Made by a program: the position numbers and the translations under genes | The notes under the pieces: generated by a model | Databases searched by the model: none | Seen by the model: only the letters and a program-made list of their open reading frames with translations | What the model was told of the DNA's origin: nothing | Origin: an uncultured Calditrichaceae bacterium | Lineage (GTDB): Bacteria > Calditrichota > Calditrichia > RBG-13-44-9 | Assembly: GCA_964387645.1 (NCBI GenBank) | Contig: CAYLYM010000002.1 | Span: 642-64,641, forward strand | DNA length: 64,000 bases | Reading direction: 5' to 3' | Shown here: positions 29,072-53,968 of the stretch, in pieces | How positions within the stretch are numbered: the first letter of the stretch is position 1 | Layout: every line of letters begins with the position of its first letter

Positions 29072-31906
29072 ATGAGATTCAGTAAACTGATTTTCTTACC
29101 GCTAATTTTGTCGTTTTTATGCCTTCTATTTTTTCAAAATCCAATTCAAGCACAAACACCTGAAGAGATTCAGAAAATTGAGAACGCAGCCCCTGAAAAG
29201 GCTACTGTTACACCAAAAAAACCCCGCAAGCTATTGGTAGTGTCGATTTGTCATGGATTCAAACACAAGTGTATTCCTATTGCTGCTAAAGCTATCGAAA
29301 TTTTAGGAAAAAAGACCGGCGCATACGAAGTAGTACATGCTAAAGACCTGAGTGTTTTTGAATGGGATAACCTCAAGCAATATGATGGAGTGCTTTTCAA
29401 TAACACGACCAAGCTGAAATTCGATAACGAGAAATGGCGTAAAAATTTGCTGAAATTTATTAAAAATGGGAAAGGTGTGATAGGCATACACGCTGCAACG
29501 GATAATTTTTATGACTGGCCGGAAGGCGCCGAAATGATGGGTGGCCTGTTTGATGGACATCCGTGGAATTCGAAGGGAACCTGGAAAGTGAAAATAGACG
29601 AACCCGATCACCCCTTGAATGCGGCTTTCGAGGGGAAAGATTTCGAAGTGAATGACGAAATTTACCGCACCAAAGGTTTCACCCGGGAGAAACTGCGAGT
29701 GTTGGTCAGTCTGGATATGGCTGATGAAGTTAATTTGAGTGCGAAAGGGGTAAAATATACTGATAAAGATATCCCCATTAGCTGGATTCGCCGGTATGGT
29801 AAAGGTCGTCTATTTTATTGTTCTTTTGGGCATAATAATCATATTTACTGGACCCCTTCGATTTTGCGGCATTATTTAGATGGAATTCAGTATGCGCTCG
29901 GCGATTATCCGGTGGATGATACTCCCAGTGTCGACAAATACATGGAGGATGCCGCCAAATACCAGTGGGGCCAGAGCCGCGCTTCGCTCACCATGTTAAG
30001 TGATTTTGTACGCTGGGCAATCGACCATCCGGATGTTCGTGCCCGCACAGAGGAACGATTCATTAAATTTTTAAAGCGAAAAGATGCCAGTCTGCCGGGA
30101 AAACAATTCGTTTGCCGCCAATTGAGCCTGATTGGTACCGAAAAATCCGTTCCCGTACTGGTCAGTTTGCTTCGGAAGGAAAAAACTTCTAACATGGCAA
30201 GGTATGCACTGGAGCGAATTCCGGGTGAAAAGGTAGATGTGGAATTACTTAAAGCTTTGAAAAAAACCAGGGGATTGGTCAGGATTGGGATTGTTAATAC
30301 ACTTGGAGTAAGACGATACGCAAAAGCCCTTTCAGAGTTAAAGAAACTGGTTTATGATAAGGATGCTGAGGTAGCCAGTGCGGCTGTTGCAGCCATTGGT
30401 CGGATTGGTGGAGATCAGGCTGTTAAGATTTTGGCAGAAGCTAAGAACAAGCTCAGCGGGAAATTGCGTAATCAGGTTCTGGATGCCTATCTGGCATGCG
30501 CTGATCAGTATTTAAATAAAGGCAAATCTACTGCTGCAAATAAGATATACCGGGAATTATATCAACCAAAGGAACCTGTACCTGTGAGAGCATCAGCTTT
30601 AAGGGGACTAATTCTTTCTGACCTGCAGAATGGTGTGCAAACGATAAAGGAGGTTCTGCAAGGGGATGATACAGAATTGCAAGCAGTAGCTATAAGTATG
30701 ATTCGGGAATTACCTGAGTCAACAGATGTGCGTGAGATTGCTGAACTATTGCCTGATCTTCCATTGGAAGGACAGATTCAATTACTCTCAGCGTTAGCGG
30801 ATCGTGGCGATTCAGCTGCTCGCATGGTAGTTTTAAAGGCTACGGAAAGTCCCGAGGCTGAAGTCCGCATTGCAGCACTCAGAGCTTTGGCTGTGTTAGG
30901 AAATTCCCGAGATGTAAAGCTTTTAGCCAGTAAAGCTGCATCCTCCCGGGGGAAAGAGAGCCAAATTGCACGTGAAAGCTTATATCGACTGAGCGGTCCA
31001 GATATCGATGATACTATCTTGAAAACCATCCCTGATGTAGAACCAGCTGTTAAAGTTGAACTTATCCGAAGCCTGGCGGAACGCGGTGTCACAAAAGGCG
31101 TAGATTTGTTGTTCACCACTGCAAAGGATGAAGACAGTAAAGTGAGAGTGGAATCGCTCAAATCTCTGGGTGTACTGGCCGCACCGGGTCGTTTGTCAGA
31201 ATTGATTCAGCTTTTACTTCAGGCGCAAACCGATACTGAACGTCGTGAAGCAGAACGAGCAGTATACGCTGTAACGCAGAAAATTCCTCCAAAAGGTGGT
31301 AAAGCAGAAGCCATCCTTGCCGTTTTACCTATAGTAAAAGACGAGACCAGCCGCGGATCTTTGCTACAAGTTTTAGGAAGAATTGGTGATCGAAAAGCGC
31401 TGGGTATCTTAAGAAAATCTCTTAAATCGAAAAGTGATGTCATAAAAACGGCGGCTATTCGTGCGCTTACTGACTGGCCCACACCAGAACCAGCCGAGGA
31501 TTTATTGGAAGTTGCCAAAACCTCTAAAAATAAAGTTCATCAGGTTCTGGCTCTGCGCGGTTACATCCGATTGGTTGACGTCATGCATACTCACCCAGCC
31601 AGTGTTACCCTTAAAATGTATAAAACCGCAATGGAATTGGCTACTGAGGCGAATGAGAAAAGAATGGTTCTGTCTGCTTTGGCTAATGTTCAATCTGTTG
31701 AAGCGTTAAATTGGGCGATGAATTATCTCAATGATCCCCTGTTAAAAGGCGAGGCGCAAGCAGCCGCAGTGCGAATTGCAAGGGAAATTTATCGTTCTTA
31801 TCCAGATGAATGTAAAAAAGCTATGGAGAAAATTCTGACAACAAATCCGTCTGAACAAGTGAAAAATAATGCGGAAAGGGTTTTAAGATATATCCAAGAA
31901 CTGTAA
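29072..31906 (+). CDS. Secreted ThuA-like domain fused to a long HEAT-repeat solenoid
   Basis: Sec signal; ThuA-like GFKH, GVIGIHAATD, GGLFDGHPW, DEIY, GRLFYCSFGH; about 650 aa of HEAT-like repeats (e.g. VRIAALRALAVLG). Confidence 0.8.
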   Translation: MRFSKLIFLPLILSFLCLLFFQNPIQAQTPEEIQKIENAAPEKATVTPKKPRKLLVVSICHGFKHKCIPIAAKAIEILGKKTGAYEVVHAKDLSVFEWDNLKQYDGVLFNNTTKLKFDNEKWRKNLLKFIKNGKGVIGIHAATDNFYDWPEGAEMMGGLFDGHPWNSKGTWKVKIDEPDHPLNAAFEGKDFEVNDEIYRTKGFTREKLRVLVSLDMADEVNLSAKGVKYTDKDIPISWIRRYGKGRLFYCSFGHNNHIYWTPSILRHYLDGIQYALGDYPVDDTPSVDKYMEDAAKYQWGQSRASLTMLSDFVRWAIDHPDVRARTEERFIKFLKRKDASLPGKQFVCRQLSLIGTEKSVPVLVSLLRKEKTSNMARYALERIPGEKVDVELLKALKKTRGLVRIGIVNTLGVRRYAKALSELKKLVYDKDAEVASAAVAAIGRIGGDQAVKILAEAKNKLSGKLRNQVLDAYLACADQYLNKGKSTAANKIYRELYQPKEPVPVRASALRGLILSDLQNGVQTIKEVLQGDDTELQAVAISMIRELPESTDVREIAELLPDLPLEGQIQLLSALADRGDSAARMVVLKATESPEAEVRIAALRALAVLGNSRDVKLLASKAASSRGKESQIARESLYRLSGPDIDDTILKTIPDVEPAVKVELIRSLAERGVTKGVDLLFTTAKDEDSKVRVESLKSLGVLAAPGRLSELIQLLLQAQTDTERREAERAVYAVTQKIPPKGGKAEAILAVLPIVKDETSRGSLLQVLGRIGDRKALGILRKSLKSKSDVIKTAAIRALTDWPTPEPAEDLLEVAKTSKNKVHQVLALRGYIRLVDVMHTHPASVTLKMYKTAMELATEANEKRMVLSALANVQSVEALNWAMNYLNDPLLKGEAQAAAVRIAREIYRSYPDECKKAMEKILTTNPSEQVKNNAERVLRYIQEL

Positions 31907-32077
31907 ATAATTTTGCCAGATTGTTGAAAAAGAATTTCGTCCGGGCGTCTGTGTAACCAGGCAAGAAAAATTTTGAGAAAGATGAGGTTTTTAGATTGAG
32001 AACATTAAGTGTTAAAAAATACTTAGTTTTCATCGTATTTTATTAAATAATTCTGTTTGATAAATGAACCAGAGGGG

Positions 32078-33103
32078 ATGATGTCAGAAAAAATGAATCG
32101 TCGAAATTTTTTAAAGAAAACTTTAGCTGCATCAGCAACCGCTCCTCTGATTTTAAGTTTTGAAGAAAAAGCTTTGTTAGCGGCAAAATCCAATTATAGT
32201 AAATCACCGGAAAAGAAGACTGCTTCGATGAAAATCCCAACAGGAAAGATAAAAAATGTTGAAATCACCCGTTTAATCGTTGGTGGAAACCTTACCAGCG
32301 GTTTTGCCCATAGTCGTGATTTGATTTATGTATCATCATTGTTACGTCATTACTTTACAGATGATAAAATTTTCGAAACCTGGCAGCTTTGTGAGGAAAA
32401 TGGGATAAACACCGCCATCCTGCGACTGGATAATCAGGTGATCCGATTAATTAATAAGTACTGGCATGAAGTCGGTGGTAATATTCAGTGGTTAGCTCAG
32501 GTAAAGATCAAAGAAGATGATTTATTTTCAGATATCTCCCGGGCTATCGATAATGGAGCCATTGGAGCTTACATTCATGGAGGTGTGGCTGATAAATTTA
32601 TTACTCAGGGAAAAATTGATTTGATAGCCAAAGCAGTGGAGTATATTAAAGATAATGGGGTGATTGCCGGTGTTGCCGGTCATTTGTTGCAGGTGCCTAT
32701 GACCTGTGAGAAAGAGGGCCTGGATGTGGACTTTTACATGAAAACATTAAATAGTGGTAATTATTGGACGGCAGGGCCGCGATTAATCGAAGATGAAAAT
32801 TGGGTGCCTGATCCCGAGAAAGAGATTGTACCAGAATATAATCCCCGTACGCATGACAATATCTGGGCTACTACCCCCCAACAAACCATCGCTTTTATGA
32901 AAAAGGTAAAGAAGCCCTGGATTGCTTACAAGGTATTGGGTGCTGGAGCTATCCATCCGAAAGAAGGTTTTGATTATGCCTTCCGGAATGGAGCGGATTT
33001 CATTTGTGTAGGTATGTTTGATTTTCAGGTTCAGGAAGATGTGGCAATTGCTCAAAAGGTGCTTTCCAGCGATTTGAAACGCAAACGTCCCTGGTGTGCC
33101 TGA
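32078..33103 (+). CDS. Tat-exported aldo/keto-reductase-like fold protein
   Basis: NRRNFLK; ITRLIVGGN and KPWIAYKVLGAGAIHPKEGFDYAF, AKR-barrel-like. Start at 32078 or 32081 (GAGGGG SD). Confidence 0.65.
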   Translation: MMSEKMNRRNFLKKTLAASATAPLILSFEEKALLAAKSNYSKSPEKKTASMKIPTGKIKNVEITRLIVGGNLTSGFAHSRDLIYVSSLLRHYFTDDKIFETWQLCEENGINTAILRLDNQVIRLINKYWHEVGGNIQWLAQVKIKEDDLFSDISRAIDNGAIGAYIHGGVADKFITQGKIDLIAKAVEYIKDNGVIAGVAGHLLQVPMTCEKEGLDVDFYMKTLNSGNYWTAGPRLIEDENWVPDPEKEIVPEYNPRTHDNIWATTPQQTIAFMKKVKKPWIAYKVLGAGAIHPKEGFDYAFRNGADFICVGMFDFQVQEDVAIAQKVLSSDLKRKRPWCA

Positions 33104-34410: not shown

Positions 34411-35358
34411 ATGAAACCACAAGATCAGGAAAAGAGACTTTCCCGCCGGGAGTTTTTATCCAGATCCGCCCTGGCGGCTGCTGCCATATCAGTCGTCGGT
34501 ACAACTTCCAAAAGCCAGGCTTCTAACAGTTCTGGCGATAAACATCATTTTAAACTGAAATATGCACCGCATTTTGGCATGTTCAAAAATCACGCCGGAA
34601 AAGACTTAATCGACCAGATAAAATTCATGGCGGATGTTGGATTTCGCGCCCTTGAAGATAATGGAATGAAGAACCGGTCAGTGGCTTTACAAGAAAAAAT
34701 TGCCAGTACCATGGCCAATTTAGGCATGGAAATGGGTGTGTTTGTTGCCCACAAAATCTATTGGAAAGAACCAAATCTTGCCAGTGGAGACGAATCGCTT
34801 CGTGAGGAATTTTTACAGCATATCAGAGAATCCGTGGATGTTGCTCGGCGTGTCAACGCCAAATGGATGACGGTAGTTCCTGGTCATGTGGATTTACGCA
34901 AGGACATGGGTTATCAAACAGCAAACGTCATTGAAGCATTAAAACGAGCTTGTGACATCCTGGAACCTCATGGTCTGGTGATGGTTTTAGAACCGCTGAA
35001 TTTTTATAACCATCCCGGCATGTTCCTCACTAAAATTCCGCAAGCCTATCAAATCTGTCGCGCTGTAAATAGTCCTTCTTGTAAAATTTTATTTGACATT
35101 TATCACCAACAAATCACTGAAGGCAATCTTATTCCTAACATCGATATGGCCTGGAGTGAAATTGGTTATTTTCAGATTGGTGATAATCCTGGAAGAAAAG
35201 AACCGACCACTGGAGAGATTAACTACAAGAATGTTTTCAAACATATTTATGAAAAAGGCTATAAAGGGATTCTTGGAATGGAACACGGAAACAGTAAAAA
35301 GGGCAAAGAGGGTGAGTTAGCAGTTATAGATGCTTATAAGGAAGTAGATTCATTTTAG
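34411..35358 (+). CDS. Tat-exported hydroxypyruvate-isomerase-like TIM barrel (AP-endonuclease-2 family)
   Basis: SRREFLS; YAPHFGMF, VLEPLN, LFDIYHQQITEGNL, QIGDNPGRKEPTTGEINY. Confidence 0.88.
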   Translation: MKPQDQEKRLSRREFLSRSALAAAAISVVGTTSKSQASNSSGDKHHFKLKYAPHFGMFKNHAGKDLIDQIKFMADVGFRALEDNGMKNRSVALQEKIASTMANLGMEMGVFVAHKIYWKEPNLASGDESLREEFLQHIRESVDVARRVNAKWMTVVPGHVDLRKDMGYQTANVIEALKRACDILEPHGLVMVLEPLNFYNHPGMFLTKIPQAYQICRAVNSPSCKILFDIYHQQITEGNLIPNIDMAWSEIGYFQIGDNPGRKEPTTGEINYKNVFKHIYEKGYKGILGMEHGNSKKGKEGELAVIDAYKEVDSF

Positions 35359-35393: not shown

Positions 35394-36074
35394 ATGAAAA
35401 AAATTGCTTATTTTGCACTATTTATTTGTTTTATTTTCGATTTTATCGAATGTACTCAAAAAGAGGAGCAAGAATCAACAGAGCCTGTTTCTCAAAAAGT
35501 CATCACACCTACTCAAAAAATTGTTCTCTGGAATGGTAAAGATTATTCCGGGTGGAAGCTGGTATTGGAGGATCCCGGTGTGGATGTAAAAACGGTGTGG
35601 TCTGTAAAAAATGGAAACGCTTATTGCACAGGCGTGCCCAAAGGGTATATGCGGACTGTGGACAGCTACACAAATTACAAACTTCATGTGGAATGGCGGT
35701 GGCCAGAAGAGCCAGGTAACAGTGGTGTGCTTCTTCACTGCCAGGAGCCGGATACGGTTTGGCCGGTGTGTGTTGAGGCGCAATTACATTCCGGGGATGC
35801 CGGAGATTTTATTTTAATGGGTGGCACTTTGCTCAATGAGCAGGTGGACAAGACGATGCGGAGAATTCGCAAAAAAGAAGAAAGCAGTGAAAAAGCCGCG
35901 GGTGAGTGGAATACTTATGATATTATTTGTAAGGACGATACCATTAAATTGTTTGTCAACGGCGTATTGCAGAATGTAGGGACTGGCTCTTCAGTGAAAT
36001 CGGGTTTTATTGCCTTACAGAGCGAAGGTAAACCCATTGAATTTAGAAATATTTATCTGGAACCAGTCGAGTGA
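35394..36074 (+). CDS. DUF1080 family protein, exported
   Basis: LWNGKDYSGW, YKLHVEWRW, GNSGVLLH, GEWNTYDI, GFIALQSEGKPIEFRNI. Confidence 0.88.
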   Translation: MKKIAYFALFICFIFDFIECTQKEEQESTEPVSQKVITPTQKIVLWNGKDYSGWKLVLEDPGVDVKTVWSVKNGNAYCTGVPKGYMRTVDSYTNYKLHVEWRWPEEPGNSGVLLHCQEPDTVWPVCVEAQLHSGDAGDFILMGGTLLNEQVDKTMRRIRKKEESSEKAAGEWNTYDIICKDDTIKLFVNGVLQNVGTGSSVKSGFIALQSEGKPIEFRNIYLEPVE

Positions 36075-36180: not shown

Positions 36181-37704
36181 ATGAAGAAGCTCCTGCGATT
36201 TCTGTTTCGTTTCATTCGTCGTCATTATATTCCTTTAATTTTCTTTTTTATTGGTATTGTAACTGTTTTTCTTATACGTAGCGGAATCGAATATACTTCA
36301 ACGGATGCGTTTTGTGAATCATGTCATGTACATCCACAGGCAATCTCCAGTTGGAAGTTAGGTCAGCATCGCGACACAGAGAGTGGTGTTGTGGCACATT
36401 GTACGGATTGTCATTTACCCCCCGATGGCTGGGATTACCTGGTAGCCAAAGCTAAAACAGGATTACGAGATATATTTAGTACATTATTTAAAGATGTATC
36501 CAGGATTGATTGGGAGTTGAAATCCCGTCGAGAACATGCCGTCAGGCATGTGTATAAAGCTTCATGTTTGAAGTGTCACCAGAATTTGTTTCCGAAAGGA
36601 TTAACTAAAAAAGGTGAGGATGCCCACCTTTATTATGAACAGAATGCGGAAAAGCTTCGATGTATCAATTGCCATTTGAAAGTCGGACACTTTCATAAAG
36701 AAGAACCGAAATTAGCTGCAATGAATGAGAAATCTGGTAAAGATAAAGTCATTTATACAAAGCCAGCAGTGGTAACAGAGTTTAAAGATTATACTGAATA
36801 TATCCCGGGAACTTCAGTGAGTTTTGAGATGGTAGCGATACCAGGTGGGACGTTTACTATTGGTAGCCCGCAAGATGAGCCTTACCGGGATGAAGATGAG
36901 GGGCCACAGCGTACCATCGAAATCAGTCCTTTTTGGATGGGAAAGACTGAAGTTAGTTGGGACGAATATTTTGCTTTTTACCGACAGACGCATCGTGAAG
37001 GCCGGAGCGAAGACCAATTGACTACAATCAAGAAAATATCAGATGTGAATGCCATTACTGGCCCAACTCCACCCTATGGTAATCCTGATCAGGGTTGGGG
37101 AAGAGGGAAACGTCCGGCCATTACCATGACATACCACGCCGCGACTGTCTATTGTCAATGGCTTTCGCAGGTCACGGGAAAAAAGTATCGTTTACCGACC
37201 GAAGCTGAATGGGAATATGCGGCCCGAGGAGGAACAACCGGCGCTTATTTCTTTGAAGGCGATCCGCGAAAGTTCTCTGAAACCCGCCTGTGGAATAAAA
37301 TTTTTGGCATCGATACCACCATTAATCAATATGTGATTTATCGGGGCAACAGTGGTGGGAAAACTCATTTGCCTTCAGCGGTGAAACCGAATCCTTTTGG
37401 ATTGTTACATATGCTTGGTAATGTAAAGGAATTTTGCCTGGATTGGTATGCACCAGATGCTTACGCTGCCTATCCTGCCGATGAAGTTATTAAAGATCCT
37501 ACCGGACCACCTACTGGTACGGAACATGTCATTCGTGGGGGATCTTTCAAAAGTTTGGCGTCAGAAGTTCGCGTTGCCGCACGTGAATCAACTCATCATG
37601 ATGCCTGGATGGTAACTGATCCACAAATGCCTAAAAGTATATGGTGGTATTCAGATAATAATGAAGTAGGCTTTCGGGTCGTATGCGAATATGAACAAGA
37701 ATAA
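36181..37704 (+). CDS. Fusion of NapC/NirT-type membrane tetraheme cytochrome c and FGE-sulfatase (SUMF1/EgtB/PvdO) fold
   Basis: N-terminal TM then TSTDAFCESCH, CTDCH, CLKCH, CINCH; C-terminal EMVAIPGGTFTIGS, YRLPTEAEWEYAARGG, PNPFGLLHMLGNVKE, VIRGGSF, GFRVV. Confidence 0.88.
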   Translation: MKKLLRFLFRFIRRHYIPLIFFFIGIVTVFLIRSGIEYTSTDAFCESCHVHPQAISSWKLGQHRDTESGVVAHCTDCHLPPDGWDYLVAKAKTGLRDIFSTLFKDVSRIDWELKSRREHAVRHVYKASCLKCHQNLFPKGLTKKGEDAHLYYEQNAEKLRCINCHLKVGHFHKEEPKLAAMNEKSGKDKVIYTKPAVVTEFKDYTEYIPGTSVSFEMVAIPGGTFTIGSPQDEPYRDEDEGPQRTIEISPFWMGKTEVSWDEYFAFYRQTHREGRSEDQLTTIKKISDVNAITGPTPPYGNPDQGWGRGKRPAITMTYHAATVYCQWLSQVTGKKYRLPTEAEWEYAARGGTTGAYFFEGDPRKFSETRLWNKIFGIDTTINQYVIYRGNSGGKTHLPSAVKPNPFGLLHMLGNVKEFCLDWYAPDAYAAYPADEVIKDPTGPPTGTEHVIRGGSFKSLASEVRVAARESTHHDAWMVTDPQMPKSIWWYSDNNEVGFRVVCEYEQE

Positions 37705-37837: not shown

Positions 37838-39163
37838 ATGGAAAAAACTGTAAACCGCAGGGAATTTTTAGAGATAGGCGCTGCTGCAGCGGCAGGTGCC
37901 TTGATTTTGGGTTGCGCCAAAAAGAAAAAAGTTGAACTCAAACTCCCGCCGCTTTTAGATCAGGCGCCTGAGGGACCTGTTTTAAAGGCTGGATTGATTG
38001 GTTGTGGAGGAAGGGGAACTGGTGCAGCATTAAACTTTTTAGATGCCGGACCAGGTTTACAAATTACCGCTTTAGGAGATGTATTTGAAGATCGTATTGA
38101 AAAATGTGCCAAAAAGTTAAAGGATCAGAAAAATGTCGAAGTGCCGCGCGATCACTGGTTTACAGGATTTGATGCCTATAAAAAAGTTCTGGATTCTGGT
38201 GTCGATCTGGTTATTCTGGCTACCCCTCCCCATTTTCGACCAGAACATTTTGCCGCAGCCGTGGAAGCGCGTAAACATGTTTTTATGGAAAAACCCGTTG
38301 CGGTCGATCCGGTGGGAGCTCGTTCAATAATGGCTACTGCTAAAAGAGCTGATCAACTGGGCTTGAAAGTTGTTACCGGTACTCAACGAAGACATAAAAG
38401 AGATTACATTGGTACTTATAAGCAGATTATGCAGGGAGCTATCGGTGACATTGTTTCGGCCAATTGCTACTGGAATCAAAGGCAATTGTGGTACCGTACA
38501 CCTAAAAGTGGTTGGACAGAAATGGAATATATGATCCGCGATTGGGTAAACTGGTGCTGGTTATCTGGTGACCATATCGTGGAACAGCATGTTCATAATC
38601 TGGATGTAGTCCATTGGTTCACAGGTAAGGTACCTGTGAAAGCTGTGGGATTTGGTGGACGTCACCGCAGGGTTACAGGCGATCAATATGATTTTTTCAG
38701 TGTGGATTACGTATATGATAACAATATGCATGTTCATAGCATGTGCCGCCAGATTAATGGTTGTGCTAACAATGTTTCAGAGTTTTTCATGGGAACCAAA
38801 GGTTATGCAACACTAAACAATAGTGGAGTGCAGAAGATCTACGATCATAATGGTAAACTTATCTGGGAATATGAATATCCCAAAGATGAGTCAGGTAAAC
38901 CTACTAACAAACCTAAGGTAAATCCCTACGTTCAGGAGCATATCGATCTGGTAACCTGTATTCGTCAGGACATTCCAATTAATGAAGCTGAAAATACCGC
39001 TATCTCAACATTAATCGCTATAATGGGACGGATTTCTGCCTACACCGGTAAAGAAGTTACCTGGGAAGAAATGATGAGTTCGGATTTGCGGTTAGGTCCA
39101 AAAGAGTACAAATTAGGGCCGGTTAATATTCCTAAGGAAATTCCAGTTCCCGGAGAGGCTTAA
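37838..39163 (+). CDS. Tat lipoprotein Gfo/Idh/MocA oxidoreductase (BT2159-like)
   Basis: NRREFLE plus lipobox ILGC; GLIGCGGRG, ATPPHFRP, EKPV, RDWVNWCWLSGDHIVEQHVHNLD, which I recall from Bacteroides BT2159-type proteins. Confidence 0.88.
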   Translation: MEKTVNRREFLEIGAAAAAGALILGCAKKKKVELKLPPLLDQAPEGPVLKAGLIGCGGRGTGAALNFLDAGPGLQITALGDVFEDRIEKCAKKLKDQKNVEVPRDHWFTGFDAYKKVLDSGVDLVILATPPHFRPEHFAAAVEARKHVFMEKPVAVDPVGARSIMATAKRADQLGLKVVTGTQRRHKRDYIGTYKQIMQGAIGDIVSANCYWNQRQLWYRTPKSGWTEMEYMIRDWVNWCWLSGDHIVEQHVHNLDVVHWFTGKVPVKAVGFGGRHRRVTGDQYDFFSVDYVYDNNMHVHSMCRQINGCANNVSEFFMGTKGYATLNNSGVQKIYDHNGKLIWEYEYPKDESGKPTNKPKVNPYVQEHIDLVTCIRQDIPINEAENTAISTLIAIMGRISAYTGKEVTWEEMMSSDLRLGPKEYKLGPVNIPKEIPVPGEA

Positions 39164-39249
39164 TACAAATTATCTTCTATTTAAAAGTATCTTCTATTTT
39201 AAATAAAGATGGTACTTAAAAAAAAAATTAATTAATGAGAGGGTTTAAG

Positions 39250-43146: not shown

Positions 43147-44418
43147 ATGTCAAAAAAAACAACCTTAAATCGACGTCAATTTCTGAAAAATACTTTTATT
43201 GGAATTGGATTATTTTCAATTGTTCCACGCCATGTACTGGGAGGACCGGGTTATACACCTCCCAGCGAAATGTTGACCAAAGCCGTCATTGGTGTTGGCT
43301 CCATGGGGCGTTGGCATCTGGGAGAAACCGGCGCCAAATTGTTGGCTGTTTGCGATGTGGATGATAAACACCTGCAACGAGCTTTAGAAATAGCTGGACC
43401 GGGAGTAAAGGGATATCATGATTTTCGGGAAGTTCTGGCACGACCGGATATCGATATTGTCCACATTGCCACACCGCCACACTGGCATGCTTTGATTGCC
43501 ATCGCCGCTGCCGAAGCTGGAAAAGACATTTGGTGTGAAAAACCTATGACCCGCACCATTGGTGAAGGAATTAAAGTAGTGGAAGCTGTACAGCGATATG
43601 GCCGTATATTCCGCATAAATACCTGGTTCCGGTTCCGATCCCGGTTTTATGGTTTTGGTACGCCAGTTCGCCCCATAAAAAAGTTGGTTGACAGCGGTTT
43701 GTTGGGTTGGCCATTAAAGGTAAATATTTGCGCGGCTACGGGTTTTAATTGGAAATTCCAGTGGAGTGGGAAAAAAGACCTCAAACCACAATGGATACCG
43801 CCACATCTGGATTATGATTTCTGGCTGGGACCAGCACCTTATAAACCTTACCATCCGCATAGAGTTCATGTCACTTTTCGTGGTTATTGGGATTATGATG
43901 GTGGTGGTCTGGGAGATATGGGACAACATTACATGGATCCGGTTCAATACCTCCTGAATAAAGATGATACCAGTCCGATAGAAATAGAGGTCGATGCACC
44001 GCAGCAACATCCCGATGCGGTGGGAAGCTGGCGAAAGATTAGATTGCGTTATAGCGACGGCTGCGAAATAATTCTTGATGGTGAAAATAAAGAGAAAGAT
44101 GTGCCATTCATAGAAGGTCCACATGGGAAGTTATTTCGCGGTTTTAAGTCGAATATTCCCAATTTGGAAGAAAAGCTCCGAGAGTTTCCCGATCCTGAAC
44201 CGCAGGTAACCGATTTCATCGAAGCAGTAAAAACGCGCCAAAAATTTGCCCTCAATGAAGCCAATGGACATCGTTCGGCTACCCTGGTAAATTTAGCAAA
44301 AATAGCTGTGCGTTTGGGCAGAAATCTCAAGTTCGATCCAGTGAAGCAACGCTTCATTGGGGATGAAACGGCCAATCGGCTTATTTTTCAACCCATGAGA
44401 GCACCATGGCATCTTTAA
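43147..44418 (+). CDS. Tat-exported Gfo/Idh/MocA oxidoreductase
   Basis: NRRQFLK; VIGVGSMG, ATPPHWH, EKPM, DMGQHYMD. Confidence 0.9.
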   Translation: MSKKTTLNRRQFLKNTFIGIGLFSIVPRHVLGGPGYTPPSEMLTKAVIGVGSMGRWHLGETGAKLLAVCDVDDKHLQRALEIAGPGVKGYHDFREVLARPDIDIVHIATPPHWHALIAIAAAEAGKDIWCEKPMTRTIGEGIKVVEAVQRYGRIFRINTWFRFRSRFYGFGTPVRPIKKLVDSGLLGWPLKVNICAATGFNWKFQWSGKKDLKPQWIPPHLDYDFWLGPAPYKPYHPHRVHVTFRGYWDYDGGGLGDMGQHYMDPVQYLLNKDDTSPIEIEVDAPQQHPDAVGSWRKIRLRYSDGCEIILDGENKEKDVPFIEGPHGKLFRGFKSNIPNLEEKLREFPDPEPQVTDFIEAVKTRQKFALNEANGHRSATLVNLAKIAVRLGRNLKFDPVKQRFIGDETANRLIFQPMRAPWHL

Positions 44419-44459
44419 TTCTGGAATTGTTTAATGGTAAAAAAGGATACTTTATCCAG

Positions 44460-47400
44460 ATGAAACAACATGTCAAAAATCTCTTGTTTTTTTTAGTTCT
44501 TTTACTTATAGGCTGTTCTGCAGGCTTAAAAACAGGTCTGTCTGTGAAACCAGAGTATTCCTTAGAGGATATTCTTGTTCAATATCCTGCAGAGAATGAA
44601 GTCCAATGGCAATTGTTGAATGAGGCATTGCTGAAATGGGGAGAACAGGGCATACTCCAAATATGCGATAATTTGGTTCCGACAAAGGTAGGGGGCGATA
44701 GTTTATCAAGGTATGCCATAAGCGGATTAACTAAATATCTATCCAGAGCAGGACTGGAAAAGCAAAGAAAAATGTATGTTCGCACTATTCTTCGAGCGCT
44801 GGAAAAAGAAGATGAAACCGAAGTTCAACATTTTCTAATTGAGCAATTACAATGGATTGGAGGAGATGAATCAGTCAAGCATTTGGCCAGATTTTTAAAT
44901 GATGATAAATTGTGTGATCCCGCAGTCAGAGCCCTGAAAGCCATAGGCAGCTCCAGCGCAAAAGAAGTTTTGTTGAAGGGACTGAAAAATTGCCATAATA
45001 AAAAATGTTGTCTATCACTTATTTTAACCCTTGGTGAACTTGAGTATGAAAAAGCGTTCGATCAAATAAAAGATTTTGTTGACAGCAAGGATAAAGAGAT
45101 TCGAGATGCAGCCTTCTTTGCTCTGGCCAGCCTGGGTCAAACCAGAGCTATTTCAATTTTTCAAACGACGCTGACAACAAGTGAAAATTCCAAAAAAAAT
45201 ACTTTATTTACAAATTTTCTACTTTTAGCTAGAAGATTGAAAGAAAAAGGAAATATAAAGCAGTGTGAAGTGATCTGTCGAGATCTACTAAATTCTGATC
45301 AGTATCAAGCGGATGGGACTGTAAAGGCTGCGGCGTTGAGGCTATTAGTGGAAGCTGTGGGAGAATCTGCAATAGATGAACTCGTTTCAGCGATAACAAG
45401 TGAGGATAAAGCTTATCGATCAGTTGCTCTGGAGTTAGCAGTGAATGTTGGAGGCCCGGAGGCCACCAACATCTGGATTGAGAAATTGAAACAGGTCTCT
45501 CCAGAAAAACAGGCCGAAATCGTCACGATGTTAGGTGACAGAGGCGATACCCTGGCTTTCCCGATTGTGCAGGAGATGTTGTCCAGCGAAAACAAAAATG
45601 TGCGGTTAGCGGCAATTGTGGCTATGAGTAAGTGTGGAAGAGAAAGTGCCATTCCTCATCTGATGGAATTGTTGAGAAAAACGAATGACCGGGAAGAGAT
45701 CAGGCTTATCCTTCAAAACTTAGAGAAATTGATAGAAAGCCGTCAATTAATGTCGAAGCTGGTAAACTCACTGGACAATTTTACTACACCTGCCATTGAA
45801 GAAATTATTCATCTATTGGTAGAGCGAAATGCTCGAGATCATATAAACAAAATCGCCAAATTAATGGATCACTCAGAGAAAAGAATTCGTCTAGCTGCCA
45901 TTCGAGCTGTAGGAGAATTGGGCGATGGTTCATATTTGGATAATTTGACAGAAATTTATCTAACCTCGGATAAGGGCGGGGAAGAATCGGCTACTTTGAA
46001 TGCACTGGTCTCGTTGGCCCGCCGCACCAATCGCCTGGTTGAAGTCAGTCAAAAGTTGGTTGATTTATTTCCCAGAGTGAACCGGGAAAAACAAAGAAGA
46101 ATATTAAGGGCACTTCCAAGGATTGGTAGTGATGAAGGACTGAAATGTGTCAGAGAAGCTGTTCTGAATTTTAAAGGTGAAAAGCGTACCGAAGCCATTC
46201 GTTCCTTATCAAATTGGAGGAAATTAGAAGCAATAGACCCGTTATTTGAGATTCTCGAAAAAGATACTGCTTTGGTTCATAAGATTCTCGCATTACGTGG
46301 ATTGCTGCAAATTTTAAAAGCTGATACAGTACTTGGTCCTGTCGAGAAATTGAATTTTTATCAAAAAGTTATGCACCTGTCACCGCGTTATTCAGAGAAA
46401 AAGATGATACTGGCCGCAGTAAGCGGTTTAGAGCATGTGCAGAGCCTTAAATATATTTTGAAATATTTACAGGATGATTCGTTAAAAACGGAAGCTGCGA
46501 TGGCGGCATATCAAATGGCTGTTTCCATGTTGGACGCCAATCGCGAATCCATGGCCAGCGAAATCATTCAGACACTTATTACATCTCAACTTGATTCCAA
46601 TACTGTTTATACTATTAAAGAAAAATTTATTGAACTGGAGCGATTGAATGAGCCACCGCCTGGATTTCGTGCACTTTTCAATGGGAAAAATCTGGCTGGC
46701 TGGAAAGGACTGGTCGGCAATCCGGTTACGCGAGCCAAAATGACACCTGAGGAATTAGCTAAAGCTCAGGCTAAAGCAGATTCTTCGATGCGTGAACACT
46801 GGAGAGTTGAAAACGGTATTCTGATTTTTGATGGCAAGGGTAAGAATATTTGTACGGTAGAAGAGTTTGGTGACTTTGAATTGTTAGTGGATTGGAAAAT
46901 TGAAAAGGGCGGTGATAGTGGTATCTATTTAAGAGGTTCTCCACAGGTGCAAATCTGGGACATTACTGAAAGGCCTGAAGGTTCTGGAGGGCTTTACAAT
47001 AATAAGTTACATCCCAGTAAGCCACTGGTGCCTGCAGATTTGCCTCCCGGAAAATGGAACCGTTTTAGAATAATTATGATTGGCGATCGTGTTACCGTTT
47101 ATTTAAATGGTGTTAAAGTGGTGGATAATGTGGTGATGGAAAATTACTGGGAGCGGGATAAACCTATTTATTCTCGTGGTCCAATTGAATTGCAAGCCCA
47201 TAACACATCTTTGTATTTCAGGAATATTTTCATCAGGGAAATTCCCAGAGAAGAAAAATCTTTTAAGGGTCCACTTTTTAATGGAAAAGATTTAACGGGT
47301 TGGGAATTGGTGGGAGCACAATCCGGGACATGGCGGGTCGAGAATGGCGTACTTATCACCGAAGGCCGTGGGGGAGGATGGTTGTCCACCACACGGGAAT

Positions 47401-47852
47401 TCGATAATTTTAAATTAGAATTGGATTTCCGCGTTTCTCAAGGTGGAAACAGTGGCGTTTTCATCCGGGCACCACATGAGGGAGATCCGGCTTATACTGG
47501 AATGGAAATTCAAATTCTGGACGATTACGCCCCAAAATATGCCAATTTGAAGCCCTGGCAATATACCGGAAGCATTTATGGTGTGCAGGCACCGGCCCAG
47601 CGGAAGAGTAAACCAGCCGGCACCTGGCAACATTTTGTGATTACCTGTGATGGCCCTAACATTACAGTTGAATTAAATGGAGACATTATTATTCAAACAA
47701 ATTTGATTGATCACATGGACAAAGAAAAAGAACATCCAGGATTGAAGCGTAGGAGGGGTTTCATTGGGTTACAAAACCATGGAAGCCGAGTAGAATTCAG
47801 GAATATTTATATCACAGAATTGGGAGTAAATACAAAAATGGTAGACAAATGA
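44460..47852 (+). CDS. Lipoprotein: HEAT-repeat solenoid plus two DUF1080 domains
   Basis: Lipobox LIGC (true start 44460; the ORF-track start overlaps the upstream gene); HEAT repeats; GDSGIYLRG...GPIELQAH and GNSGVFIR...GFIGLQNHG. Confidence 0.87.
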   Translation: MKQHVKNLLFFLVLLLIGCSAGLKTGLSVKPEYSLEDILVQYPAENEVQWQLLNEALLKWGEQGILQICDNLVPTKVGGDSLSRYAISGLTKYLSRAGLEKQRKMYVRTILRALEKEDETEVQHFLIEQLQWIGGDESVKHLARFLNDDKLCDPAVRALKAIGSSSAKEVLLKGLKNCHNKKCCLSLILTLGELEYEKAFDQIKDFVDSKDKEIRDAAFFALASLGQTRAISIFQTTLTTSENSKKNTLFTNFLLLARRLKEKGNIKQCEVICRDLLNSDQYQADGTVKAAALRLLVEAVGESAIDELVSAITSEDKAYRSVALELAVNVGGPEATNIWIEKLKQVSPEKQAEIVTMLGDRGDTLAFPIVQEMLSSENKNVRLAAIVAMSKCGRESAIPHLMELLRKTNDREEIRLILQNLEKLIESRQLMSKLVNSLDNFTTPAIEEIIHLLVERNARDHINKIAKLMDHSEKRIRLAAIRAVGELGDGSYLDNLTEIYLTSDKGGEESATLNALVSLARRTNRLVEVSQKLVDLFPRVNREKQRRILRALPRIGSDEGLKCVREAVLNFKGEKRTEAIRSLSNWRKLEAIDPLFEILEKDTALVHKILALRGLLQILKADTVLGPVEKLNFYQKVMHLSPRYSEKKMILAAVSGLEHVQSLKYILKYLQDDSLKTEAAMAAYQMAVSMLDANRESMASEIIQTLITSQLDSNTVYTIKEKFIELERLNEPPPGFRALFNGKNLAGWKGLVGNPVTRAKMTPEELAKAQAKADSSMREHWRVENGILIFDGKGKNICTVEEFGDFELLVDWKIEKGGDSGIYLRGSPQVQIWDITERPEGSGGLYNNKLHPSKPLVPADLPPGKWNRFRIIMIGDRVTVYLNGVKVVDNVVMENYWERDKPIYSRGPIELQAHNTSLYFRNIFIREIPREEKSFKGPLFNGKDLTGWELVGAQSGTWRVENGVLITEGRGGGWLSTTREFDNFKLELDFRVSQGGNSGVFIRAPHEGDPAYTGMEIQILDDYAPKYANLKPWQYTGSIYGVQAPAQRKSKPAGTWQHFVITCDGPNITVELNGDIIIQTNLIDHMDKEKEHPGLKRRRGFIGLQNHGSRVEFRNIYITELGVNTKMVDK

Positions 47853-49764: not shown

Positions 49765-49923
49765 AGGACACTATTGAAGGTAAATTTGAGTGATTAATAC
49801 AATTAAAAATGAAAAACATTTAATTTAAACTTCTTTTTATTTAGTTATCTGGTTAATTTTTAAGTGATTGTATTTTCAAAATATTTTAAAAAAAGGAAGG
49901 GAAAGTATTATTATAGGTGTCTT

Positions 49924-51288
49924 ATGAGCAGTGACAAAAAACAAAACGCTATGGACAGAAGAAGTTTTTTGCGGTATACAGCTGTAGCTGGGGCCGGGCT
50001 TATGGTTACTTCTTTAGCTAGGCCTGCAAGAGTAACTTCTTCTTCAGACGATTTAAACATTGCCTTATTAGGGGCAGGAGCACAGGGACAAGTTTTAATG
50101 AATGCTATTCTAAAATTGAACGCCAAACCCAATATGCCGCAGGTGAGGTTTAGGGCCGTTTGCGATATTTGGAAAGATTACAACCAGAAACGGGCAGCTC
50201 GATTGTTACAGAAATATGGACATAATGTAAACCGTTATGAAGATTATCGGGAAATGCTGGCCAAAGAAAGGGATCTGGATGCGGTAATTATTGCTACGCC
50301 AGACTTTTGGCATGCTCGGCATACAATTGCCTGCTTGGAAGCCGGTTTAAATGTCTATTGTGAAAAAGAAATGTCTAATAAACTTGAAGATGCCAAAAAG
50401 ATGGTGCTGGCGGCTCGTCGAACTGGAAAGTTATTACAAATAGGGCATCAACGAAGGAGTAATCCACGTTATATACATTGCTATAACAAATTAATTAAAG
50501 ATGCCCAGATTCTGGGACGAATCACTACAACTCGCGGACAATGGAATCGATCGGTTCAGCCAGATTTAGGATGGCCCAAAAAGTATGCCATTGAACCAAG
50601 CGTCCTGAGAAAATATGGTTTTGAGAATATGCGGCAATTTAGAAATTGGCGTTGGTACAAACGACTAGGTGGCGGTCCAATTGTAGATTTAGGGTCCCAT
50701 CAAATTGATATCTTTAGTTGGTTTCTTGAAGCCAATCCTTCTTCAGTAATTGCCAGTGGTGGTACTGACTATTACGATAAAAGCACTCATGAATGGTATG
50801 ATACTGTAATGGTTATTTACGAATATGATACGAAATATGGAAAAGTGAGGGCATATTACCAGACCCTGACAACCAACAGTAGCGAAGGTTATTTCGAAAG
50901 CTTTCTTGGTGACCAGGGAACTTTACAAATTTCTGAATCTGGTAATCGTGGTGGTGTATGGCGAGAACCATCGGCTCCTATCTGGGATAAATGGGTGCAA
51001 ATGGGATATATTTTGGAACCTGAGGAGGAAAAAAAGAAACAGGATGTTACAGCGGTATTGGATGTGCGAGAAACTATTGCTCCACCCAAACACAATTTGC
51101 CAGTTGTATTAAAAGATCCGTATCATTTACCTCATTTACAGAATTTCTTTGATGCTGTTCGCGGAAAAACTAAGTTGAATTGTCCTGCTGAAATAGGTTA
51201 TGAAACAGCCGTGGCTGTTCTGAAGGTGAACCAGGCGGTTGAAGCTGGCCGAAAGCTCACCTTTAGGCCCGAAGAGTTTCATGTTTAA
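49924..51288 (+). CDS. Tat-exported Gfo/Idh/MocA oxidoreductase (EKE variant)
   Basis: DRRSFLR; ALLGAGAQG, ATPDFWH, CEKEM in place of EKP, DLGSHQID. Start moved to 49924. Confidence 0.88.
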   Translation: MSSDKKQNAMDRRSFLRYTAVAGAGLMVTSLARPARVTSSSDDLNIALLGAGAQGQVLMNAILKLNAKPNMPQVRFRAVCDIWKDYNQKRAARLLQKYGHNVNRYEDYREMLAKERDLDAVIIATPDFWHARHTIACLEAGLNVYCEKEMSNKLEDAKKMVLAARRTGKLLQIGHQRRSNPRYIHCYNKLIKDAQILGRITTTRGQWNRSVQPDLGWPKKYAIEPSVLRKYGFENMRQFRNWRWYKRLGGGPIVDLGSHQIDIFSWFLEANPSSVIASGGTDYYDKSTHEWYDTVMVIYEYDTKYGKVRAYYQTLTTNSSEGYFESFLGDQGTLQISESGNRGGVWREPSAPIWDKWVQMGYILEPEEEKKKQDVTAVLDVRETIAPPKHNLPVVLKDPYHLPHLQNFFDAVRGKTKLNCPAEIGYETAVAVLKVNQAVEAGRKLTFRPEEFHV

Positions 51289-51318
51289 ATGATGTATATT
51301 GGTTGTAAGGGGAGAATT

Positions 51319-53308: not shown

Positions 53309-53968
53309 ATGTTTTTCCGAATATTATCATTTATTGGATTGATAGCTGTTATTATATGGATTTATTCTGCTTTAAAATCCAATCAAGAAATAAAGAAAAG
53401 TATAGGAGTATGGATAAAAGGGCAAATTCAAGAAATTTTTATTGCTTTTAAAAATATTAAAAAAACGCCTCCATCTGATTATTTTGTAATTTTCAGGAAA
53501 ACTATTTATTTTTTAACAATTTTATGTGTGCTAATTTTAGCATTTACTGGATTTTTACCAGTACTTTTTGGTAGTCACCTTTCTGGTTATTTGCTTTTGA
53601 TTCATGTGAGTGTGGCGCCTATTTTTGCTATTTGTATGGCTCTTATTAGCCTTATTTGGGCTAGTCAAAAACGTTTTGACCGTCTCAATTGGGAATGGTT
53701 TAGAAAATTATTTAAAAAAAATCGAAATCAAAGTAATAGTGTTCAATTTTATAATTGTACAGAAAAAGTATTCTTCTGGTTTTTGTTAATTTTAGCTTTG
53801 ATAATAATTCTATCCATATTGTTAAGCATGCTTAAATATTTTGGAACTGGAGCGCAGGAGTTTTTGATACAATTGCATAGGTTTAGTGCCTTGTTTTTTG
53901 TGATAGCTTCGTGTTACCATACGTATTTAATAATATTTCAATGTATTAAAGAAAAATCTATAAAGTGA
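53309..53968 (+). CDS. Cytochrome b-like membrane protein (FdnI/formate dehydrogenase gamma-like)
   Basis: 4-5 TM helices; LLIHVSV, FYNCTEKVFFW, and QLH...CYH with His residues 14 apart; the helix-I His position appears to be Tyr (RKTIYF). Confidence 0.7.
   Translation: MFFRILSFIGLIAVIIWIYSALKSNQEIKKSIGVWIKGQIQEIFIAFKNIKKTPPSDYFVIFRKTIYFLTILCVLILAFTGFLPVLFGSHLSGYLLLIHVSVAPIFAICMALISLIWASQKRFDRLNWEWFRKLFKKNRNQSNSVQFYNCTEKVFFWFLLILALIIILSILLSMLKYFGTGAQEFLIQLHRFSALFFVIASCYHTYLIIFQCIKEKSIK

Follow-up and report, generated by a model that had tools for sequence, protein, structure and literature searches.

A tetrahaem cytochrome fused to a Cys-less FGE-fold domain is co-inherited with a twin-arginine-signal Gfo/Idh/MocA dehydrogenase

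The window analysed here is a stretch of 64,000 nucleotides from an uncultured Calditrichaceae bacterium (contig CAYLYM010000002.1, positions 642 to 64,641), and its gene at 36181 encodes a membrane-anchored tetrahaem cytochrome of the NapC/NirT type fused to a domain that has the formylglycine-generating enzyme (FGE) fold, in which the catalytic cysteine pair is missing. The next gene, at 37838, encodes a Gfo/Idh/MocA dehydrogenase with a twin-arginine translocation (Tat) signal, and the FGE-like subfamily is co-inherited with this one specific Gfo/Idh/MocA family, whatever the haem module. An earlier note, made from the sequence of the window, had proposed the FGE fold as a docking or redox adaptor that couples Tat-exported sugar dehydrogenases to menaquinone, and this interpretation is partly supported. 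The features of the two genes are given below with the methods by which they were recognised, including AlphaFold2 (AF2) and its predicted local distance difference test (pLDDT).

36181..37704, + strand: cytochrome-FGE fusion gene (open reading frame, ORF, with ATG start; 507 residues; two Pfam domains)
36226..36288, + strand: transmembrane (TM) anchor, about residues 16-36, preceded by a Lys/Arg-rich cytoplasmic tail (Kyte-Doolittle, AF2 helix)
36235..36696, + strand: NapC/NirT (Cytochrom_NNT) tetrahaem domain, residues 19-172 (Pfam; alignment to NrfH 2j7a_C)
36313-36327, 36400-36414, 36565-36579 and 36661-36675, + strand: CxxCH haem motifs (motif scan)
36448..36471, + strand: K90...D97, putative quinol-site pair (phmmer alignment to NrfH 2j7a_C)
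36697..36777, + strand: linker joining the haem and FGE-like domains, about residues 173-199 (AF2 pLDDT; poor conservation in the alignment)
36826..37701, + strand: FGE-fold (SUMF1/PvdO-like) domain, residues 216-507, predicted periplasmic (Pfam, AF2, Foldseek)
37534..37584, + strand: degenerate FGE active-site segment RGGSFKSLASEVRVAAR, residues 452-468 (alignment to 6s07 and 6muj)
37606..37677, + strand: signature insert W476...D480-P-Q-x-P-K-S-x-W488...G497-x-R499 (invariant in 37 members)
37838..39163, + strand: Gfo/Idh/MocA NAD(P) dehydrogenase, 441 residues, with Tat signal (R7R8) and lipobox (C26) (Pfam PF01408, TAT_signal)

Architecture and distribution of the fusion

Both domains of the 36181 product were recognised by Pfam, Cytochrom_NNT over residues 19-172 (E 5e-28, 98.4 bits vs a cutoff of 24.1) and FGE-sulfatase PF03781 over residues 216-472 (E 2e-43, 149 bits vs a cutoff of 23). 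The 19-residue hydrophobicity peak begins at residues 16-18 with a Kyte-Doolittle value of 2.17, and the Lys/Arg-rich N-terminus together with the hydrophobic segment at about residues 16-36 indicates an N-in, periplasm-facing topology. The AF2 model was built with 64 homologues in the alignment and has a mean pLDDT of 78.7 and a predicted template modelling score (pTM) of 0.78. It contains a single long N-terminal helix (residues 2-39), a haem domain modelled with moderate confidence, as expected since the haems are absent from the model, a disordered linker (pLDDT <50 over residues 163-186) and an FGE-fold domain with pLDDT >90 across most of its length. The earlier description of a TM anchor and four CxxCH motifs fused to an FGE fold is thus confirmed by Pfam, the motifs and the model.

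An exact-sequence look-up of the 507-residue product returned no record, and ENA contains a near-identical metagenome contig. Both Pfam domains within about 500 residues were found in all of the 120 best database homologues (56-99% identity), and according to the genome records the fusion is carried by KSB1, Calditrichota, 'Cytophagia', Bacteroidales, Marinilabiliaceae, Prolixibacteraceae, Acidobacteriota, Melioribacteraceae and a Deferribacteres-labelled metagenome-assembled genome (MAG). The NCBI labels of these homologues are only 'SUMF1/EgtB/PvdO family nonheme iron enzyme' or 'hypothetical'. A stand-alone form also exists as FGE-like proteins of 300-350 residues with a general secretory (Sec) signal, which match only residues ~195-507 of the 36181 product and whose species range refers to metagenome loci only.

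Tetrahaem half

The four CxxCH motifs (C45, C74, C129 and C161) are carried by 118 of the 120 best homologues. Beyond the histidines of the motifs, exactly four more are invariant among the 64 homologues, namely H51, H63, H149 and H170, which would be enough for four bis-His haems. Residues 23-134 were aligned with NrfH 2j7a_C by phmmer, with K90 and D97 at the positions of NrfH K82 and D89, and these two residues are conserved in 63/64 and 64/64 homologues, respectively. NrfH K82 contacts 2-heptyl-4-hydroxyquinoline N-oxide (HQNO) and is the equivalent of the essential K91 of CymA (PMC2762525). The cytochrome half of the fusion therefore looks quinone-reactive, and the retention of both quinol-site residues agrees with the quinone link that had been suggested from the NapC/NirT type. 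All named NapC/NirT subfamily models in NCBIfam scored far under their cutoffs (NrfH, 77.6 vs 134.2 bits; TorC, 62.5 vs 478; napC_nirT, 54.7 vs 310.6), and the 36181 product is orthologous to none of them.

FGE-fold half

In the alignment with the FGE of Thermomonospora curvata (6s07), the segment GGSFLCHESYCNRYRVAAR corresponds to GGSF---KSLASEVRVAAR of the 36181 product. The copper loop 'LCHESYC' of the T. curvata and S. coelicolor enzymes is replaced by 'KSLAS', with a 3-residue deletion and the loss of both copper-ligand Cys, and two Cys in the active-site segment (C-x4-C before RxxAR in true FGE) were found in 0/64 fusion homologues. The alignments to 6s07 and 6muj and this count bear out the absence of the catalytic Cys pair that had been read from the window. 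In the Foldseek search, the top matches of the domain were the FGE structures 2q17, 5nyy and 6muj together with PvdO 5hha (E ~1e-17); bacterial and human FGE are among its neighbours, as is PorK of the PorK-PorN ring complexes.

The subfamily is marked by a C-terminal signature, DPQxPKSxW[WY]...GFR, which is an insert of about 16 residues relative to true FGE, lies right after the degenerate active-site loop and is present in tetrahaem-fused, PSCyt1-fused and stand-alone secreted forms. Across 37 fused and stand-alone members, W476, D480, P481, Q482, P484, K485, S486 and W488 of the insert are invariant, and the fold core (LPTEAEWEYA and N404/G407/G413/E417) is also conserved; no invariant His, Cys or Met occurs in the FGE-like domain of these 37 members. 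A redox role of the fold, which the earlier note had left as one of its options, accordingly finds no support in the subfamily. Despite its invariance, the insert was modelled by AF2 with a pLDDT of ~60 (<50 at residues 482-484), and an invariant sequence with a low-confidence model is what one would expect of a loop ordered by binding to a partner. A role of the FGE fold as a pure protein binder is known from the type VI secretion system immunity protein Tsi3 (bioRxiv 10.1101/2021.05.21.445229), and PorK in the PorK-PorN ring is another documented case.

The domain was compared with the named families of the fold, and four assignments were rejected. For a true FGE/SUMF1 the fold is present, but the Cys pair is absent and no sulfatase occurs among the ORFs of the window: Pfam Sulfatase PF00884 matched 0 of the 43 ORFs of at least 120 residues, all of which were scanned, in agreement with the earlier note's statement that the window has no sulfatase. 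PvdO was the best NCBIfam match, at 107.9 bits vs a cutoff of 500, and pyoverdine genes are absent within the window. EgtB, OvoA and SenA scored 51 vs 360, 38 vs 400 and 58 vs 420, respectively, and the N-terminus is a cytochrome and not DinB-like. GldK/PorK scored 100.4 vs 350, the TM anchor is not a lipobox, and gld/por genes are absent nearby.

Conservation of the gene pair

The comparison set consisted of loci L001-L105, of which 17 genome and 80 metagenome loci were fetched with the cytochrome/FGE protein or its alignment as the sole bait, and the neighbours were labelled by BLASTP against the window's own proteins. Among the tetrahaem-fusion loci whose downstream flank extends for at least 1 kb, an orthologue of the 37838 product (52-71% identity) is the immediate same-strand neighbour in 19/21, and at L018, one of the two exceptions, a truncated Gfo gene lies at that place. 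Among the stand-alone signature-bearing loci with flank, a 37838 orthologue (38-46% identity) follows in 18/28, an undercount, because in high-GC loci (L066 and L083, for example) genes were hidden by antisense ORFs. FGE-like genes without the signature have a 37838-type neighbour in 0/9. Over 99 loci, 47 of the 652 other ORFs are of the 37838 type and 42 of these 47 directly adjoin the FGE-like gene, at a median distance of 26 nt. The identities of the FGE-like and Gfo proteins to the window pair are correlated (r = 0.92). In a reverse look-up from five 37838 orthologues on long contigs, the cytochrome-FGE fusion was directly upstream in 5/5, with a 4-bp overlap in L103. Co-occurrence with Gfo/Idh/MocA genes in other genomes, which the earlier note had set as a test of its idea, is therefore observed from both sides of the pair.

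The pair is kept while the other neighbours change, in Bacteroidota, KSB1, Calditrichota, Ignavibacteriota-like, Acidobacteriota and PVC-type (PSCyt1) loci. Two cultured members of the Prolixibacteraceae, Sunxiuqinia elliptica and Gaoshiqia sp. Z1-71, carry it isolated amid the housekeeping genes SIR2, ileS, lspA and recO; it is therefore a self-sufficient unit and more than a component of a sugar island, and its core function is independent of the sugar genes that surround it in the window. As a 37838-type neighbour occurs beside fused and stand-alone FGE-like genes alike, the core consists of the FGE-like subunit and the dehydrogenase, and the cytochrome module is interchangeable. Stand-alone SUMF1-like genes, for which the earlier note had expected its fusion to supply a function, thereby gain a context, the same subfamily being found as stand-alone genes beside the same dehydrogenase family. 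The proposed tie to Tat-exported sugar dehydrogenases stands by synteny for the 37838 type and not for such enzymes in general: the BT2158-like gene at 39235 is absent from most related loci and accompanies the pair only in some (L023, L019 and L103).

Exceptions to the adjacency are L005, L038, L040, L043, L046, L053 and L054. L053 (7001-9610) and L054 carry the most divergent signature-bearing FGE-like genes (34-37% identity), which lack a Gfo neighbour, so the signature alone is not fully diagnostic. These two genes adjoin a TonB-dependent receptor and, in L053, also a sulfatase (PF00884). In the signature-bearing L038, L046, P0377 and P0389, a ~400-residue N-terminal FG-GAP/VCBS-repeat region replaces the cytochrome, and no Gfo neighbour is present in the loci seen. 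P0377 and P0389, of ~720 residues, were considered as candidate FGE-like/Gfo fusions and were rejected, their additional region being FG-GAP repeats and not a Gfo domain.

The partner dehydrogenase

The twin-arginine motif is kept in every 37838 orthologue, and the invariant residues comprise the Rossmann motif G55-C-G-G-R-G60, the EKP motif E151-K-P153 and the catalytic E249/H253/D256. The AF2 model of the 37838 product has a pLDDT of 86, and its nearest structures are the aldose-aldose oxidoreductase 5a03, scyllo-inositol dehydrogenases, DgpA, YjhC/NanOx and the glucose-fructose oxidoreductase (GFOR) 1ofg, at 14-21% identity. The product is thus an authentic NAD(P) oxidoreductase for a sugar or cyclitol, from a distinct family without a close characterised relative. 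A lipobox Cys follows the Tat signal in the tetrahaem-paired clade (L001-L034), and an AxA-type cleavage site is found in the stand-alone-paired clade (L035-L080); it is therefore probably only beside a membrane-anchored FGE-like protein that the partner is a Tat-dependent lipoprotein, and in the tetrahaem clade both subunits would be membrane-tethered.

The earlier note had placed a BT2159-like and BT2158-like core pair downstream of the fusion. The first of these assignments fails, as the 37838 product reached 16 bits vs the cutoff of 650 for NCBIfam BT_2159_fam; the second holds only below the cutoff, BT_2158_fam being the best match of the 39235 product at 557.6 bits, under the equivalog cutoff of 750. 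The analogy to Bacteroides does not extend to the cytochrome either: BT2160, the gene upstream of BT2159 in B. thetaiotaomicron, was ruled out as a homologue, two papers showing it to be a SusR-type regulator.

Behind the pair in L105 (4677-8547), which comes from a Bacteroidales MAG, lie a gene for a NanM-like/SSF transporter fusion and one of the GlcNAc 2-epimerase family; the latter family is also represented in the window, at 55677-56951. These neighbours are a possible hint at amino-sugar or sialic-type substrates.

Haem modules beside the pair

Three unrelated haem modules occur with the FGE-like/Gfo pair: the fused NapC/NirT domain, fused PSCyt1 and an adjacent Tll0287-like protein. PSCyt1 (Planctomycete-type cytochrome c) is fused to the FGE-like protein as one or two domains, for example in L039 and L086 (Pfam). 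In L061 (4107-4796) and L064 (6099-6785), a protein of ~228 residues with one CxxCH is encoded directly upstream of a trio of stand-alone FGE-like, Gfo and TIM-barrel genes, and the L064 copy, which was the one checked with Pfam, matches the Tll0287-like haem-PAS family. Because the pair recurs with three unrelated haem modules, the best explanation is that electrons leave the dehydrogenase via cytochromes.

A second dehydrogenase-cytochrome chain is present further along the window.

49864-51288, + strand: Tat-signal Gfo/Idh/MocA, whose stop adjoins the start of the next gene
51289-53289, + strand: 666-residue cytochrome, seven CxxCH, TM segment at the C-terminus
53309-53968, + strand: cytochrome b561-type membrane protein

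A 37%-identical homologue of the 7-haem protein is divergently adjacent to the PSCyt1-FGE-like/Gfo pair in L039.

Surrounding genes in the window

All 43 ORFs of at least 120 residues are on the + strand, the GC skew is positive throughout 1-64000, and a promoter and terminator scan of the 33-45 kb region found fewer sites than in shuffled sequence and so carries no information. The genes near the pair are listed below.

29072-31906, + strand: 944-residue protein, ThuA domain fused to HEAT repeats
33249, + strand: another DUF1080/3-keto-disaccharide hydrolase
34411..35358, + strand: Tat-signal xylose-isomerase-like TIM barrel (hydroxypyruvate-isomerase-like), 315 residues (Pfam, NCBIfam)
35394..36074, + strand: DUF1080/3-keto-disaccharide hydrolase family protein (Pfam, 129 bits)
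39235, + strand: BT2158-like Tat dehydrogenase
40735, + strand: signal-less Gfo
41862, + strand: nucleoside-permease-like major facilitator superfamily (MFS) transporter
43147-44418, + strand: another Tat Gfo
44406-47852, + strand: 1148-residue HEAT-repeat protein with two DUF1080/3-keto-disaccharide-hydrolase domains

The 34411-type TIM barrel is a frequent third neighbour of the pair, since its orthologues (52-76% identical) stand beside it in L001, L002, L012, L023, L034, L048 and L049, and further such loci are L055, L064, L065, L067, L071 and L084. The 35394-type DUF1080 gene is also upstream of the fusion in L023 and L104 and is a local pathway gene outside the conserved core. The start of the 44406 gene overlaps the end of the preceding Gfo gene by 13 nt, and in L002 a 38%-identical orthologue of its product follows the pair. 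Within the sugar island, 32057-33103 (+ strand) encodes a 348-residue protein with a Tat-like signal RRNFLKKTLAASATAPL and with no match in Pfam or NCBIfam.

In total, the window holds 10 Gfo/Idh/MocA proteins, 4 xylose-isomerase-like TIM barrels and 4 DUF1080 proteins, as well as hexuronate genes (UxaE, UxaC and a TRAP transporter) and genes for transketolase, 6-phosphogluconate dehydrogenase and phosphofructokinase. The genes around the pair fit the periplasmic oxidation and processing of glycosides, followed by uptake and cytoplasmic reduction.

Proposed function and alternatives

Few families are as expanded as the periplasmic Gfo/Idh/MocA dehydrogenases in Bacteroidota, Planctomycetota, Verrucomicrobiota and their relatives that degrade polysaccharides. 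Glycans, glucosinolates and C-glycosides are broken down by recently recognised 3-keto-glycoside routes, in which these enzymes perform the first step. The Tat-exported members GFOR and aldose-aldose oxidoreductase (AAOR) hold a non-dissociable NAD(P), and as the periplasm has no NAD(P) pool, such enzymes need an oxidant in situ. Which acceptor serves the Gfo-type glycoside dehydrogenases exported by Tat is an acknowledged gap; in the case of BT2158, the authors invoke 'another as yet unidentified sugar' (PMC8121099).

With somewhat better than even confidence, we propose that the 36181 and 37838 products are partners in a periplasmic dehydrogenase of two subunits, in which the 36181 product provides the membrane anchor and the electron transfer, with electrons passing to quinone. 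The FGE-like domain would be a non-catalytic docking subunit, analogous in this role to the extra C-terminal domain of TorC, and would bind the dehydrogenase via the DPQxPKSxWW insert beside the old active-site groove. The dehydrogenase would oxidise a sugar or cyclitol using tightly bound NAD(P), like other Tat-exported members of its family, and the reducing equivalents would exit through the haems to the membrane quinone, in the window via the NrfH-like site, by which the enzyme could turn over in a compartment without free NAD(P). The window pair would then probably stand at the oxidative entry of a keto-sugar pathway in the periplasm, or form its electron sink, together with the TIM-barrel isomerases/lyases and DUF1080 hydrolases, with uptake (MFS) and cytoplasmic reduction to follow. 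The docking, the direction of the electrons and menaquinone as their acceptor are deduced from synteny and family knowledge, and thermodynamics argues for a flow from sugar to quinone over the reverse.

Several observations weigh against this proposal. Neither the 36181 nor the 37838 product contains a flavin, iron-sulfur (Fe-S), Mo or pyrroloquinoline quinone (PQQ) domain in Pfam or NCBIfam, and with neither such a redox domain nor an invariant His, Cys or Met, there is no known chemistry from the hydride of NAD(P)H to c-type haems. For NapC/NirT proteins, oxidation of quinol is more usual than reduction of quinone. The nearest solved structures to the partner are only 14-21% identical; about one third of the stand-alone signature-bearing genes have no Gfo neighbour in the ORF calls; the divergent signature-bearing gene of L053 adjoins a sulfatase; and a natural FGE-like/Gfo fusion was not found among the best 150 representatives. 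Either this gap between hydride and single electrons is what makes the system most interesting, or it points to a different true role, for example the rescue of an over-reduced cofactor or a catalytic or maturase function of the FGE-like domain.

One answer to this gap, which we offer tentatively and regard as unlikely, is that the FGE-like subunit is a converter that lets c-type haems re-oxidise the bound NAD(P)H of Tat-exported Gfo/Idh/MocA enzymes. A cofactor, metal or radical-relay site might then surround the invariant DPQxPKSxWW insert.

The FGE-like domain could also be catalytic itself, as a PvdO-like periplasmic dehydrogenase of a small molecule, or mature the Gfo partner by installing a protein-derived cofactor, and this we think quite unlikely. 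The haems would then carry the electrons of the FGE-like domain, and the Gfo protein would be a pathway neighbour or substrate and not a docked subunit. The hydride-to-haem problem would disappear with a cofactor made or held by the FGE-like domain, the invariant insert is situated beside the old active-site loop, and PvdO is both the best NCBIfam match (108 bits) and, as 5hha, among the top structural matches. The PvdO score is, however, far from its cutoff of 500, the FGE Cys pair is lost with no invariant His, Cys or Met left for a metal, and one-to-one genes that often overlap or nearly abut suit a stoichiometric complex better than a maturase.

A flow in the direction usual for NapC/NirT proteins, in which menaquinol is oxidised and the Gfo partner reduces a periplasmic keto-sugar or other acceptor, is distinctly improbable. 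The characterised NapC/NirT proteins NrfH, CymA, NapC and TorC are quinol dehydrogenases, the Lys/Asp pair of the quinol site is conserved, and the window is rich in genes that handle keto-sugars. Quinone-reducing members of the family nevertheless exist, such as cytochrome cM552 of Nitrosomonas, and the mismatch between hydride and one-electron carriers holds equally in this direction. By standard potentials, moreover, menaquinol (~-74 mV, PMC2762525) would not favourably reduce NAD(P)+ (~-320 mV) or most sugar ketones.

That the adjacency reflects shared regulation or a shared pathway only, with the cytochrome-FGE protein serving another periplasmic partner or acting as a general electron hub and not binding the Gfo enzyme, seems very improbable. 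The seven exceptional loci would be in its favour, but the pair persists across phyla despite changing neighbours, stands isolated among housekeeping genes and has its two genes a median of 26 nt apart. That the protein is a true formylglycine-generating enzyme, maturing sulfatases with electrons from the membrane, is barely credible, since against the strong FGE-sulfatase Pfam match and the sulfatase beside the L053 relative stand the loss of both catalytic Cys, the shortened loop, 64 kb without a sulfatase and a conserved neighbour that is a dehydrogenase.

If the two-subunit dehydrogenase is real, an FGE-like subunit with interchangeable cytochromes would connect the oxidation of these sugars directly with respiration and energy conservation. 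The FGE scaffold would gain a new use, and an explanation would be at hand for the recurrent class of genes that lack a neighbouring sulfatase and are mis-annotated as 'formylglycine-generating enzyme / SUMF1/EgtB/PvdO family nonheme iron enzyme'. Were the FGE-like subunit in addition a converter, respiratory sugar dehydrogenases without flavin would form a new class, distributed over Acidobacteriota and the FCB and PVC groups, and many 'SUMF1-like' genes would receive their first biochemical role. The cultured carriers Sunxiuqinia elliptica and Gaoshiqia spp. make the question directly testable.

Comparison with known systems

The individual parts, namely a NapC/NirT anchor, an inactive FGE scaffold and a Tat-exported Gfo dehydrogenase, are known. 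Full-text literature searches returned nothing on the cytochrome-FGE fusion or the FGE-like/Gfo pair, and to our knowledge the combination of a conserved FGE-like subunit, an NAD(P) dehydrogenase and swappable cytochromes is undescribed.

With FGE/SUMF1, PvdO, NirV, Tsi3 and PorK/GldK, the 36181 product shares the common fold, and PvdO, Tsi3 and PorK likewise lack the FGE Cys pair. It differs from these relatives in its own insert DPQxPKSxW[WY], in its fusion to or company of cytochromes and in its Gfo/Idh/MocA neighbour.

Zymomonas GFOR, Caulobacter AAOR and Bacteroides BT2158 resemble the 37838 product in the twin-arginine signal, the Rossmann fold and the EKP motif. In GFOR and AAOR the cofactor is re-oxidised by a second sugar, whereas at 37838 the dedicated cytochrome/FGE-like subunit is the likely sink. 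In ThuA-ThuB, a Gfo/Idh/MocA trehalose 3-dehydrogenase (ThuB) is likewise paired with an accessory protein without an obvious redox domain (ThuA), whose fold is, in contrast, unrelated to FGE; the mechanism and acceptor of ThuAB are themselves unsettled. In L022, L024 and L028, a ThuA-like gene and another Gfo/Idh/MocA directly follow the cytochrome-FGE/Gfo pair, so that two kinds of Gfo and accessory-protein pair are clustered.

NrfH, CymA and NapC have in common with the fusion one N-terminal TM helix, four CxxCH motifs, the Lys/Asp matching NrfH K82/D89 and the family PF03264. The fusion differs from them in its additional 310-residue non-haem C-terminal domain and probably in a reversed electron flow, and from NrfH in haem 1, where CxxCHxM is replaced by CxxCHxH with the invariant H51. 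The closest parallel in architecture is TorC/DorC, in which a membrane tetrahaem module is fused to an extra periplasmic domain, and TorC is a below-cutoff NCBIfam match to the N-terminal part of the 36181 product. The extra C-terminal domain of TorC binds its cognate enzyme and is a monohaem cytochrome, whereas that of the fusion is a haem-free FGE fold; the partner of TorC/DorC is a molybdoenzyme reductase, and that of the fusion an NAD(P) dehydrogenase.

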